Assembly (NCBI GenBank): GCA_964016885.1 | Contig: OZ024758.1 | Span: forward strand, 23,126,001 to 23,190,000 | Direction of reading: 5' to 3' | DNA length: 64,000 bases | Source: Eledone cirrhosa | Taxonomy: Eukaryota | Shown: positions 27,501 through 39,500 of the stretch, piece by piece | Numbering within the stretch: position 1 is the stretch's first letter | Layout of the letters: each line of letters opens with the position of its first letter | Notes under the pieces: model-generated | The model's database searches: none | Told to the model about the DNA's origin: nothing | What the model saw: only the letters and a program-made list of their open reading frames with translations | Program-made: the position numbers and the translations under genes

Positions 27501-30500
27501 CAAATAAGACCGTAAAGGGCCGTAACTCTACACTGGATAGGATGGCGTCCGACTCTCTACCAATACTGCCAATCATAATATTCATTCAGAACAATTGTAT
27601 TATTAAGGGTTGCCTCAAGACAGAGCATAAGTGTATTTGAAATTGGAGTCTTCAAATTATTTCTATGAATTTAAAATTGTATTATTGCTTCTTTGGTTTC
27701 AGCATCTGACACATTCAACATGTTTGATTATATACAGTCTCCAGAATTAAAGAAACTTCTTGGACTGGTTGAAGTCTCACCAAAAGTTGCTTCATTGCTG
27801 GCTGCCACTGGTTTAGACATGCTGACTAATCCACAAAGAGTAAGTAGCAATTTCAGAGATAATAATTCAAGGATCAAACAGCAATTATATTTTTTTCCCG
27901 TTTATTATTCCATTTATACATCAATGAATGTTAAACATTTATTATTTCTAATTGAAAGAAATCTTAGTGATACACTCACCTTCTCCAGTCTGTAGTAGGG
28001 AGTTAATATATTTTGATAATTTAAATATCTTAGCAATATTGAAATTTGTTTCAGATATATCGACAGAATAATTATATTTATATTTTTAGTTATTTCCTTA
28101 GAAAATATTCCATGTCTAACTAACATTACATGCAATATTATTTCTGTAACATTAACGAATCTAATCTTAGATGTGAACACCCTGAAGTTTGGAGATTTGA
28201 TAAAATAATATAAGGACATGTCTGATTTTAATCAGAAGACATCTTGAGAATTACAAATAATTACTGTGTTAAACAAAACTTAAATCTATAATATGTTAAG
28301 AATTCTTTTTGTAATCCTTTGTTTTCTCTTCCATCAGCTCCTACCATTTATTGAAGATGAAATGATATGGCAAAAGATGTGTCATAATACAACAGTTTTC
28401 AGAAAACTCTTCCCATTGTTTAAAGATGAAAGCAATATAAAAGCTGCATGTAATCTGTTGACAGATGTTGATTTTAATAAACTCTTACAACAAATAAATG
28501 CAACACTTCCTGGTTTCAACAGTCTCTGGGAAATGGTGAGCTTTGAAGTATTATTTCTCTTTGTAGTTATTTGCTCACTATTCAAATATATTGTATTAAT
28601 GTTTTAGTGAAATAAAGTAGACTAGTAAATAATCCCAGTTACTTATTGTGTTCTCCTCACAACAAATATTTATTTGATCTATTGTGCTTGTATTCTTACT
28701 CTAGACCTTTATTTTTATAGGTTCCAAAGTATTATATATATGTGTCTGTGTATGTGACAGTAGATAAGGTTTTGTTTATATATATCAAGAATGAATGCTT
28801 TAATAAGATAACTCCTTACAAGATAACTGGTTGAGAGTCACTACCACAAACAAGAAGTTTGAGAAATAATTAAGTATTGCATATGATTGAACAATATATA
28901 TTGTAGTCAGCATATGTAGACAATTTTAATAGACAAAGAAACATATGTTAAAGCAAATAAATTCCTAATTTTCTTTCTTGCCGAAGTTTATATTACTTAT
29001 ATATATATATATATATATATATATATATATATATATATATATATATATATATTCAAAAGTAAAGACTTTAAATATTTCCTACACAGGTAAAACTATAGGA
29101 AAAGTAAGTTGAAAATGCAATTGAAGTTTTTAAGAAAATTTATATACAATAATTCATAACTTAACCTGTTTCACAAGTTTTGTGATTTCTTCTTCTTCTC
29201 CTTCTCCTCCTTTTCCTTCTTCTTCTTTTCCTTCTTCTTTTTCTTCTCTTTCTTCTTCTTCATCTTCTTCCATCCCTCTTCCAAAAGTGAAACATTCATA
29301 TTACTTTATCTAATATCTACAATATATCTGGCCTGTCACACCACCATATTGTTAATGTCTAATCCACACAAATATTGTTTCTTTTTATTTAGTTCTCACA
29401 TATTTTCTTATTGTTTTCAGGTCCTGGTTGTCAGTAGTTACAATGAAAATGTTACACTCCCTGTAGACTATTCAGCATATGTTACATCTCAGATGCAGTT
29501 TCAGCAATTACTTATGAAATTGATTAATAATCCTCCAAAATTTCAATGGGGTGTCAATGCAAACTTCACATTGGATTCATTTAATGAATTATTTACCAAT
29601 ATAACAGGAAAGGACTTATTGGCTAAACTTGCTAAGTAGGTGAAACTTTATTTTACAATTTCAACATTTTGTATATTTAAAATTTACATTTTCATATCAC
29701 CAAAATCTTACAAAATGTTTAACTCTAATAATTTATATTTATTTATTTCTATCAAATAAATAACTTTTTCTTAATATCTTCTTCCATTACCTCTGGCCAG
29801 TTTAAATGCTAAAAGGTTAATGCTACAAGACTAAATGAATCAATTTAGTAAATTTCAAAGAAATATATTCCTTCTCCCTCACTGAAAGTAAATTCATTCT
29901 TTATAACATATTTCACTCACAATCTAGACATCTAATATATATTTTAATTTTATTGAATTGCTTCTATTTTCAGCCCTCAGATTGTCAATGCTTACATAAT
30001 GCAGTTATTTGCTACAGTGGGTAATGCTTTTGGACTTCCATCACAAAATATGCAAATCTATATAGAGCAGAAGGTTCTGAAATTTATGAATGCCAATTTG
30101 AAACTTATTTCAGGTATGTATTAAAGATCTCTGTATTGTTTTTATTTCAATTTATATTAAAACTTTAAACATCCAACATGCCATTCAACATTTTCTACAG
30201 AGCTGTTCACCATTGATATTCAATTCATTATTTAACTTTGCTATAAATATTACAGTCAATTAATTATTAAATATGAAAGTCAGAAAGAACTCTAAAGACA
30301 CTAATCTGAGACTAACACTTTATAACAGAGAGATGGTTATATGGTATCTAATGCGCTCAATATCACATAATAGAAATTAATGTAGAGCCTGGGACAGAAT
30401 TCAATACATTGGCTCATGTGTTTGACCAAACATTCTTAATTTAATTGGTACTATTTTCAATATATTTTCCTATATTTCTAAATTTTAGAAATCTTCACAT

Positions 30501-36500: not shown

Positions 36501-39500
36501 TCAATATCACATAATAGAAATTAATGTAGAGCCTGGGACAGAATTCAATACATTGGCTCATGTGTTTGACCAAACATTCTTAATTTAATTGGTACTATTT
36601 TCAATATATTTTCCTATATTTCTAAATTTTAGAAATCTCCACATATTTCAGACAACTGATATGCAATTCAATAATATTTATCATCGAACTTTATATGTAT
36701 TATTATAAGATTGATTAGTTCTGTCAGAACTCTAATATCATTGCTTGTTTTCCTTTCAGCATCTGGCACATTCAACATGTTTGATTATATACAGTCTCCA
36801 GAATTAAAGAAACTTCTTGGACTGGTTGAAGTCTCACCAAAAGTTGCTTCATTATTGGCTGCCACTGGTTTAGACATGCTGACTAAGCCACAAAGAGTAA
36901 GTAGCAATTTCAGAGATAATAATTCAAGGATCAAACAGCAATTATCTGGGGTTTTTTTGTTTATGATTCCATTTATATCAATGAATGCTGAACATTTATT
37001 ATTTCTAATTGAAAGAAATCTTAGTGATACACTCACCTTCTCCACAGTCTGTAGTAGGGAGATAATATATTTTGATAATTTAAATATCTTAGCAATATTG
37101 AAATTTATTTCAGATATATCGACAGAATAATTATATTTACACCTTTAGTCATTGCGTCAAAGACGCTACTTTTTTACTAAAATAAGTCTCAAAAATCTAT
37201 CATGCGTCCTGGAGGCTGAAATTTGTTTATTATTTCTATTCAAATTTTTGGTTGTCAAAATTAGGGTGCGTCCTCGACGACGAAGCGTCTTTGGTGCTGT
37301 GAAATACAGTATTTCCTTAGAAAATATTCCATGTCTAACTAACATTACATGCAATATTATTTCTGTAACATTAATGAATCTAATCTTAGAAGTCAACACA
37401 CTGAAATTTGGAGATTTGATAAAATAATATAAGGACATGTCTGATTTTAATCAGATGATATCTTGAGAATTACAAATAATTACTGTGTAAAACAAAACTT
37501 AAATCTACAATATGTTAAGAATTCTTTTTGTAATCCTTTGTTTTCTCTTCCATCAGCTCCTACCATTTATTGAAGATGAAATGATATGGCAAAAGATGTG
37601 TCTTAATACAACAGTTTTCAGAAAACTCTTCCCATTGTTTAAAGATGAAAGCAATATAAAAGCTGCATGTAATCTGTTGACACATGTTGATTTTAATAAA
37701 CTCTTACAACAAATAAATGCAACACTTCCTGGTTTCAACAGTCTCTGGGAAATGGTGAGCTTTGAAGTATTATTTCTCTTTGTAGTTATTTGCTCACTAT
37801 TCAAATATATTGTATTAATGTTTTATGTAATAAAGTAGACTAGTAAATAGATAGTATTTATTGAGGTGTGACAAGTGTTTTGTGATTGATCGGCTCAAGG
37901 CTTGATCTGTATTGATCTGAGCCGACTCTGGAATCAAAAGCACGTCACACCTGAATAAACATAATGAAGATCTGACACATCATCCTTTATATTATTTTAC
38001 ACTCTGCTTAGTGCATAGTTTCCAGTAGGTATATCAGTATTGTACTGAGTGCTCAGTCTGGTGAACCTACAGTAACTGGACATTTCAATCCCTAAATATA
38101 TCTGTACATATATTTATATATATATATATATATATAAGTGTAAGTAAACAGTTTAAAATTAACATCATTTATTCATATTTTCTGTTATATATATTTTGGT
38201 GATAACCATTATTCAACAGTTATGACCTCATCAGACAGCTAGAACTTGAACAGAAAAAACAGGAAAATATAATGATGGAACAAAGTTTACCTCTGTTATT
38301 TCGATCTTTTGATGTGTCCAATCTCGAAGTATAGTGTTGTTTTCTCAAACAACACTATACTTGTGGCATAGTTTTTCTGTTTTTCCTGTTCGAGCTCTGG
38401 CTGTCTGATGAGGTCATAGCTGTTGAGTAATGGTTATCAGCGAAATATATATAACAGCGAATATGGATAAAGGAAGAAAATTTTAACTTGTTAACTTACA
38501 CTTCTTGTTTTTAAATTACTCCTGATTAAACAGACCCACCTACACACTTCGTTGAGTGCTCTAACCTACATACTGAAGTGTAGGTAAATAACCAACACAT
38601 ACTAAAATTTATATATATATATATATATATATATATATATATATATATATATATATATGTATATTCTAAGTAAAGTTTTTAATATATCGCACACAGGGTA
38701 AAACTATAGGAAAAGTAAGTTGAAAATACAATTGAAGTCTTTAAGAAAATTTATTTACAATAATTAATAACTTTACCAGTTTCACAAGTTTTGTGATATC
38801 TTCTTCTTCACCTTCTCCTCTTTCTTCTTCTTTTCCTTCTTCACCTTCTCCTCTTTCTTCTTCTTTTCCTTCTTCTTCTCCTTTTTCTTCTCCTTCTTTT
38901 TCTTCTGCTTCTTCTTCTTTTCCTTCTTCTTTTTCTTCTGCTTCTTCTTCTCTTTCTTCTTCTTCATCTTCTTCCATCCCTCTTCCAAAAGTGAAACATT
39001 CATATTACTTTATCTAATATCTACAATATATCTGGCCTGTCACACCACCATATTGTTAATGTCTAATCCACACAAATATTGTTTCTTTTTATTTAGTTCT
39101 CACATATTTTCTTATTGTTTTCAGGTCCTGGTTGTCAGTAGTTACAATGAAAATATGACACTCCCTGTAGACTATTCAGCATATGTTACATCTCAGATGC
39201 AGTTTCAGCAATTACTTATGAAATTGATTAATGATCCTCCAAAATTTCAATGGGGTCTCAATGTCACTCTTACTGGGGATCCATTTTCATCATTTTTGCG
39301 CAACTTTGAGGAAGATGTCATTTACAATCTTCTTATCACGTATGTAATCTATACTTAACTGTTTACCCTTTAAAGTGGCCGTATCCGGCCAGAATTTTCT
39401 TGTCTCTTTCTGTTCAAACCAGTTGTAACCAGCTGACATTTTTACCAGCCTTGCTGACCTGCATTCTTTGCCACAGGTTCTGCCCATGTATGTGGTCATG

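Follow-up and report, generated by a model that had tools for sequence, protein, structure and literature searches.

A probable young tandem expansion of a four-exon module in the first extracellular domain of a giant ABCA transporter gene of Eledone cirrhosa

Introduction

The extracellular domains of ABCA transporters form a lipid-lined tunnel and have been divided into base, tunnel and lid in the sections available of two studies (PMC13161189, PMC8501128). Among these transporters, ABCA13 (5,058 aa) has been called the largest ATP-binding cassette (ABC) transporter, and the available sections describe its long N-terminal region as lacking a known domain (PMC7948424, PMC13161189) and as required for ABCA13 function (PMC7948424). 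The available sections of surveys of ABC genes in lamprey and carp give partial ABCA12 sequences only and make no mention of repeats of the kind reported here (PMC4458048, PMC4825979). We analysed a stretch of 64,000 nt from the octopod Eledone cirrhosa (assembly GCA_964016885.1, contig OZ024758.1, positions 23,126,001 to 23,190,000; hereafter the window), which contains part of a giant ABCA gene with what is probably a very young tandem array of a four-exon module in the region encoding extracellular domain 1 (ECD1).

The octopus proteins of this kind reach 6,779-7,118 aa, against 5,058 aa for ABCA13. ABCA1, ABCA4 and ABCA7 are only ~2,150-2,300 aa long, whereas the octopus ECD1 alone has ~5,200 aa and ~19-20 motifs with a cysteine pair. 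Nevertheless, the N-terminus of an octopus orthologue aligns with ABCA4 and ABCA1, and one half of the module resembles their distal lid. ABCA13 and fish ABCA12 also have a very long ECD1, and young repeats occur in the ECD1 of many fish ABCA12 and of both lamprey records, but a profile of the invertebrate module finds only 0-2 matches per vertebrate protein.

LPA kringle IV-2 and the nebulin triplicate are comparable multi-exon repeat arrays. The parts available of two further studies describe a homogenised domain array of dumpy that changes in length by unequal crossing-over (PMC5100051) and a comparable intragenic repeat array in the zinc fingers of teleost Piccolo (PMC3484663). The octopod locus shares with these four an in-frame multi-exon unit, a homogenised core, chimeric edges and a copy number that varies among lineages. 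It differs from them in its host, an ATP-driven membrane transporter, and in its unit, a subdomain of an extracellular lipid-handling domain. Our literature search, which left most subscription journals and supplements outside its scope, returned no work that describes, for any ABCA, repetition of an ECD1 module or the number of its copies. The recombination mechanism is ordinary and already known, but a modular ABCA arm that changes in length seems to be undescribed.

Extent and structure of the array

We regard the array as a real and very young expansion of a four-exon cassette in the ECD1 of a giant ABCA, with a probable origin by misaligned recombination and with modules that might form a lid-like arm, and we give this reading a probability of roughly 0.78. 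The window has no N and a G+C content of 34%. By self-BLAST the array lies at 27680-39263 on the forward (+) strand, like all exons below, and has 11,584 bp or ~3.7 units; aligned with itself at an offset of ~3075 it gave 6,689 bp at 99.6% identity, far above chance. Three full units are followed by exons A4 and B4 and by the 5'-most ~139 nt of C4. The preliminary description of this DNA had proposed an exon/intron cassette in which every copy adds 137 + 198 + 215 + 140 = 690 in-frame nt, and this was borne out by the splicing: exons A, B, C and D have these lengths and AG/GT ends, and each unit encodes 230 aa in one open frame. The offsets of 3071-3075 nt given there hold for the later units but not for A1 to A2, which are 2913 nt apart because an insertion of ~162 bp in the A-B intron is absent in unit 1 and present in the other three. 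The insertion, at 31004-31165 and again at 34075 and 37148, occurs nowhere else in the window; we take it to resemble a miniature inverted-repeat transposable element (MITE).

Unit 1 (module m5, 27703-30615, 2913 bp) has exon A at 27703-27839, B at 28338-28535, C at 29421-29635 and D at 29974-30113, and its 5' part shows 4% divergence from unit 2. Unit 2 (m6, 30616-33686), a hybrid, has A at 30616-30752, B at 31413-31610, C at 32492-32706 and D at 33045-33184, while unit 3 (m7, 33687-36759) has them at 33687-33823, 34484-34681, 35565-35779 and 36118-36257. The array ends inside a chimeric module, m8 (36760-41039; A 36760-36896, B 37557-37754, C 39125-39339, D 40891-41039), of which A, B and the 5' part of C are array sequence and the 3' part of C and D are of the conserved terminal type (Y). 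A TA tract is found in each unit: (TA)27 in unit 1 (28998-29051), (TA)25 at 32073, (TA)26 at 35144, and (TA)24 with an interrupted tail at 38610. At the DNA level, no other module is as short as the young units (2.9-3.1 kb, against 4.8-9.2 kb for the others).

In the B-C intron of unit 4, the segment 37850-38609 is unlike units 1-3 and includes an imperfect palindrome of ~370 bp (38136-38503). Directly upstream of the array, the C-D intron of m4 contains a (TA)-rich microsatellite of 2.2 kb (22908-25135). None of the 15 copies of a common core resembling a short interspersed nuclear element and none of the 12 copies of a second dispersed element lie within 27680-39263, but this is not significant because the units are copies of each other.

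Distinctness of the copies

Between units 1 and 2, the 451 bases aligned at the 5' end contain 18 substitutions and 4 indels and the next 229 bases 5 substitutions, while the last 2,227 nt differ by 5 substitutions and the TA length (0.22% divergence). Unit 4 has no difference from units 2 and 3 in 615 positions at its 5' end and departs from them afterwards. No substitution distinguishes units 2 and 3; their sole difference is (TA)25 versus (TA)26, and the 95% upper bound of their divergence is 0.1%. One base in exon B is private to units 2 and 3 and occurs in neither outer copy, and the codon after the first module Cys, which adjoins a glycosylation sequon, encodes H, F, F and L in the four copies (28383-28385, 31458-31460, 34529-34531 and 37602-37604). 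From the last unit-1 marker to the first unit-4 marker there is a marker-free interval of 6,811 bp (30565-37375), a length within the reach of long reads.

At the protein level, the core modules of the array are 99-100% identical to each other, the module upstream is 52% identical to them, and the other modules 13-28%. The last array module, m8, is 93-100% identical to the core in A, B and 5' C and only 24-26% in 3' C and D. Thus the age gradient that had been proposed is present as a near-identical core against diverged outer modules, but it is not smooth, being a step plus a chimera. The copies had also been taken as real since they could be told apart by single-nucleotide polymorphisms (SNPs) and (TA)n length. 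This holds for copy 1, which a T/C difference at the D acceptor and other SNPs set apart from copies 2 and 3, but not for copies 2 and 3, which differ by one TA alone; diagnostic SNPs in all four copies are therefore ruled out. Substitutions tell apart at least three copies, which are very probably real. All four are likely to be real as well, the fourth being founded on the assembly and one microsatellite unit. The absence of frameshifts over 7.4 kb of coding sequence speaks for an accurate assembly.

Host gene

Using exon prediction and manual checks, we built a model of 42 exons with one four-exon phase cycle throughout. The visible part of the gene is at 303-61497 (7,399 nt, 2,466 aa) and runs past both ends of the window. 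The joined exons have no stop and no membrane helix, all 42 acceptors are AG and 41 of the 42 donors are GT, and the splice sites are good throughout. The exception is exon A of m11, which apparently has a GC donor at 56049, the sole one among the 42.

A profile of exon B matched nine proteins among 1.84 billion, the top one being a partial protein from Argonauta hians. One of the nine, P0003, was dropped as a bacterial-type HYR repeat protein. Through the Argonauta match we reached orthologues in O. vulgaris (7,118 aa), O. bimaculoides (5,025 aa) and O. sinensis (6,779 aa). ABC ATPase and ABC2-type membrane domains (PF00005, PF12698 and PF23321) were present in three of the four proteins found, namely in all three full-length octopus orthologues, and the fourth is a partial model. 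All 42 window exons match residues 2209-3966 of the O. sinensis protein P0012 (E up to 1) in collinear order, with the array modules matching many-to-one. Thus, judged by its orthologues, the gene is almost certainly an ABCA transporter gene and the window the middle of its ECD1. The full protein would have ~7,450 aa if the remainder matches O. sinensis. The open frame and the orthologues ruled out the array as a stand-alone repeat gene or a pseudogene. PF26955 is also annotated on giant ABCAs of this kind and may cover part of the repeated domain.

Other searches were less informative. A search for homologues of exon C, limited to proteins of up to 2,000 aa, gave no match among 43 candidates; PDB searches with exon profiles gave 0 matches and three weak, unrelated ones, and with P0002 and P0001 no significant match. 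None of 18 single exons scored above the curated Pfam cut-off, and P0002 had no usable match in the Atlas.

Module m4 (18542-26164; A 18542-18678, B 21183-21380, C 22351-22565, D 26025-26164), upstream of the array, is the orthologue of the Octopus X1 module and is 52% identical to the young modules. The older modules m1 (C and D only), m2 and m3 (303-17936, 10 exons in the same phases) and, downstream, m9, m10 and m11 (41590-61497, 12 exons) are single-copy in all octopods compared. Across its B/C junction (58996-59007 and 59615-59617), m11 reads R-K-K-R, a possible furin site. At the corresponding position, Argonauta, O. bimaculoides and P0002 have R-x-K/R-R, and O. vulgaris and O. sinensis K-R alone. 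An upstream module in P0001 (residues 1-180) and P0012 (residues 1395-1622) resembles m11, a hint of an ancient duplication of a multi-module block.

Origin of the array

Units 2 and 3 are hybrids, being like unit 4 in their 5' part and like unit 1 in their 3' part, with a zone of 230 bp with alternating markers between. These hybrid middle units would be the product of misaligned recombination between units 1 and 4. The repeat unit itself is a mosaic, as judged from protein comparisons with three other octopods. Its 5' C is 46-50% identical to the terminal (Y) modules and 30-43% to the X modules, while its 3' C and D are 35-77% identical to X modules and 15-23% to Y modules; A and B are ambiguous.

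We propose that two neighbouring modules may have first become near-identical over ~2 kb that begin shortly upstream of exon A and end midway through exon C, an event that could have had either direction. Two rounds of unequal crossing-over would then have followed, one unit being gained in the first and a second one later. The cassette starts and ends in one phase, and therefore gain or loss of a whole unit keeps the frame. Unequal crossing-over had been suggested in the preliminary description, and it is supported by the hybrid units and by a module number that differs among five octopods while young copies group by species. The tandem in-frame units that include introns, together with the hybrid internal units, are those of an intragenic unequal-crossing-over array. 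Copy number might also be polymorphic within the species, for which we see about even chances; it is known from one assembled sequence.

Long, young minisatellites are found in other introns (2496-3623, 53543-54403, 56197-56774 and 62538-64000, with units of 60, 72, 72 and 63 bp), and thus local tandem amplification is common in this gene. An exact 63-bp copy of the 3' half of m3 exon D and its donor (17893-17955) lies 147 bp downstream, at 18040-18102. G+C-rich tandem repeats at 1037-1912 (109 bp, 8 copies) and 6436-7216 (79 bp, 10 copies) stand beside a common inverted segment of 200 bp, and we take them to resemble pieces of retrotransposons without long terminal repeats.

The same site in other octopods

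Between m3 and m9, there are two modules in O. sinensis, four in O. vulgaris, four in O. bimaculoides, five in the window and 12 in Argonauta. Young copies are found in O. vulgaris (three, 94-96% identical) and Argonauta (four, 95-97%), while the X copies of O. bimaculoides are old (52-63%). In the tree, the flanking modules group by position and the X modules by lineage, with the 11 X modules of Argonauta together at 100/100. The flanking modules m3 and m9 place the window species beside Octopus and Argonauta outside. One shared burst, with the young copies of three species as a single clade, was rejected (approximately unbiased test, p-AU 2e-119); models without exon B, the m9 rows, and m7 and m8 of the window were left out of this test. 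Units of one species resemble each other more than they resemble those of other species, and copy number differs, the counts being those of public gene models. These comparisons indicate separate young bursts in three of five octopods, at a site between fixed flanking modules. Elsewhere in the protein, O. vulgaris and O. sinensis are 99.2-99.6% identical, and therefore O. sinensis has lost copies, or its assembly or gene model has dropped them. In the relative protein P0002, another module is present as a duplicate at 97%.

Likeness of the module to the ABCA lid

All 10 full modules have exactly two Cys, both in exon B. The stretch of 2,466 aa has 55 N-glycosylation sequons, against 30 expected, and its highest 19-residue hydropathy is 1.31. 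Along the octopus ECD1, Cys pairs of like kind recur every ~230 residues. Residues 6-254 of the O. vulgaris orthologue, which was tested in place of the window, align to residues 6-261 of human ABCA4 (E 1e-26), with the first Cys pair on C205/C230 of ABCA4, and the N-terminus of the orthologue also aligns to residues 8-200 of ABCA1. The N-terminal helix, the Cys motif and the distal segment of the ABCA1/4 type are thus all alignable in the O. vulgaris protein. On the ABCA4-aligned motif, a profile of exons A and B scored 9.8 bits with both Cys in register, while 2 of 2,000 shuffles reached 8 bits. With a reverse profile, built from this motif and five terminal look-alikes that were chosen by their Cys pairs, 21 of 46 module halves scored at least 8 bits, against 8 of 2,000 shuffles.

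These comparisons suggest that the A+B half is probably a remote repeat of the distal 'lid' segment of the ABCA ECD1. The Cys pair of the module is in register with C205/C230 of ABCA4, and the sequence homology to the lid covers exons A and B alone; no relative could be assigned to the C+D half. The available sections of the structural studies describe residues 101-300 of ABCA4 as a distal, flexible and poorly resolved part of ECD1 (PMC8501128), and the C205-C230 bond is not among the resolved disulfides there, the lid being poorly resolved in the maps (PMC8501128, PMC7932691). The predicted structure of an O. bimaculoides module is all-helical and of moderate quality (mean predicted local distance difference test score, pLDDT, 71; predicted template modelling score, pTM, 0.48). 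Fold searches with this model, in which Foldseek gave no match with E up to 0.001 and the best Z was 4.8 among 48,161 chains, speak neither for nor against the lid.

Giant ABCA proteins outside the octopods

A family search limited to proteins of 3,728-11,864 aa returned 176 proteins, of which 120 were listed and 29 of these scanned. Among the matches listed were molluscs, a nemertean, a priapulid, ticks, echinoderms, lampreys, fish ABCA12 and ABCA13. At 12 bits, a profile trained on cephalopods matched 13 of 14 non-cephalopod invertebrate proteins and none of 14 vertebrate proteins, with no shuffled match. After iteration on the invertebrate matches, the number of repeats was 6-23 in each invertebrate protein and 0-2 in each vertebrate protein (n = 14), with one shuffled match. 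The invertebrates with the recurring module are molluscs, the nemertean, the priapulid, a tick and echinoderms.

Internal repeats with at least 90% identity were present in 36 of 121 giant ABCA records, representing 20 named species; 13 of these rows are Carassius isoforms. The internal repeat of a chiton is the same module in the same register. However, the young repeats of three fish ABCA12 proteins tested (3/3) do not match the module profile; therefore vertebrates share the behaviour in ECD1, but without a detectable match of the repeat unit. Compared with ABCAs, a mollusc member of the family scored ~1,110 bits with ABCA1/ABCA4, 1,004 with ABCA7, 747 with ABCA3 and 1,123-1,239 with ABCA13/fish ABCA12, the margin of ABCA12/13 over ABCA1/4 being small. 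The predicted isoforms of Carassius gibelio abca12 (P0108-P0122) step by 225 aa, the size of the young repeat in that protein. Three giant ABCAs of sea stars (P0040, P0049 and P0076) also have PF00059, which we take to be a C-type lectin domain.

Discussion

Comparison of m4 with m6 gave a ratio of nonsynonymous to synonymous substitution rates (dN/dS) of 0.47 (0.31-0.67), with 0.90 for exon D, and the modules are therefore under moderate constraint. Those in the hot zone are the fastest-changing part of the protein: between O. bimaculoides and O. sinensis, X1 is 78% and Y 75% identical, against 96.6% for the membrane and ATPase part. Among the young copies there are 11 exonic differences (2 silent, 9 in changed codons), too few for testing selection.

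Each module of 230 aa would be helical, glycosylated and probably disulfide-stapled, combining a repeat of the lid segment with a helical linker. Stacked modules could form a long outer arm beyond the lipid tunnel, and their copy number would set the reach of the arm or its lipid-holding surface. Such a role of the modules as an arm or spacer is conceivable, at slightly less than even odds. One or a few extra modules among ~20 are probably tolerated, and turnover may therefore be mostly near-neutral under moderate purifying selection.

Several points weigh against our reading of the locus. The gene identity is founded on orthology because the ABC domains lie outside the window, and the homology to the lid is remote: 9.8 bits only, with a profile-profile probability of 35% (3% with a single motif), and a reverse-profile test that is biased since its look-alikes were chosen by their Cys pairs. 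The module counts of the other species are those of gene models, several of them without exon B, and the low count of O. sinensis could be a collapse. For Eledone, the copy count and the gene model come from one assembled sequence, from the DNA of a single individual. There is no substitution between units 2 and 3, so that one of them may owe its presence to over-expansion in the assembly, or its sequence to homogenisation during polishing. Moreover, alleles can differ by about as much as units 1 and 2 do (0.22%). Part of the array might therefore be an artefact, the true allele having three units or fewer, with the repeat walked once too often or two haplotypes placed in tandem. The identity of units 2 and 3 but for 2 bp in a long TA tract and the low 3' divergence of units 1 and 2 would fit this, and hybrid-looking units would also be expected from a loop in the assembly graph. 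However, the private exon B base in units 2 and 3 and the markers that alternate over 230 bp instead of switching at one point indicate at least three distinct copies, and the ambiguous stretch is no longer than 6.8 kb. A window without N and without frameshift in 7.4 kb of coding sequence suggests accurate long reads, and two other octopods have young copies of 94-97% identity at the same site, a divergence too high for read errors. We consider an artefact improbable, and a real expansion remains our preferred reading.

Positive selection on the outer arm, rather than tolerated drift, might have driven the expansion, for instance through escape from a pathogen or toxin receptor interaction or through altered lipid delivery. 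The low conservation of the hot-zone modules (X1 78% and Y 75%, core 96.6%), the three residues among four near-identical copies at the codon beside the first Cys, and the young repeats of at least 90% identity that 36 of the 121 giant ABCA records (20 named species) contain are consistent with this, and host-parasite conflict has been linked to concerted repeat evolution in the available sections of one study (PMC5100051). But the single old pair that was measured gave a dN/dS of less than 1 (0.47, with 0.90 for exon D), the young copies have 11 exonic differences, which fit neutrality, and a mutation bias alone could explain a hot spot in the shortest modules (~3 kb, against 4.8-9.2 kb), so that we find a selective drive unlikely. 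It is also quite improbable that the extra modules are alternative cassettes, in which skipping of modules or of exon B gives more isoforms rather than a longer protein. The modules are phase-symmetric and exon B is in phase 0-0, exon B is missing from some Argonauta and O. vulgaris models, and the Carassius abca12 isoforms step by 225 aa. However, this evidence for skipping consists of gene predictions in near-identical repeats, where read mapping would be ambiguous, and good splice sites are kept in all window exons. We favour an in-frame lengthening of ECD1 by misaligned recombination.

A broader scenario would be that bilaterian giant ABCAs in general have an adjustable arm of up to ~20 lid repeats, that its length changes at a hot spot under selection, that a segregating module number sets the delivery distance, and that the long domains of ABCA12 and ABCA13 are worn-down versions of it; taken as a whole, we regard this as doubtful. 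ABCA12 and ABCA13 have large extracellular domains that lack a structural explanation, while the giant ABCAs of invertebrates use a definable, lid-related module of 230 aa encoded by four exons. The small size of this module makes it amenable to expression and structure determination. Furthermore, with 2 to 12 modules between m3 and m9, the five octopods provide a natural length series for probing the arm length.

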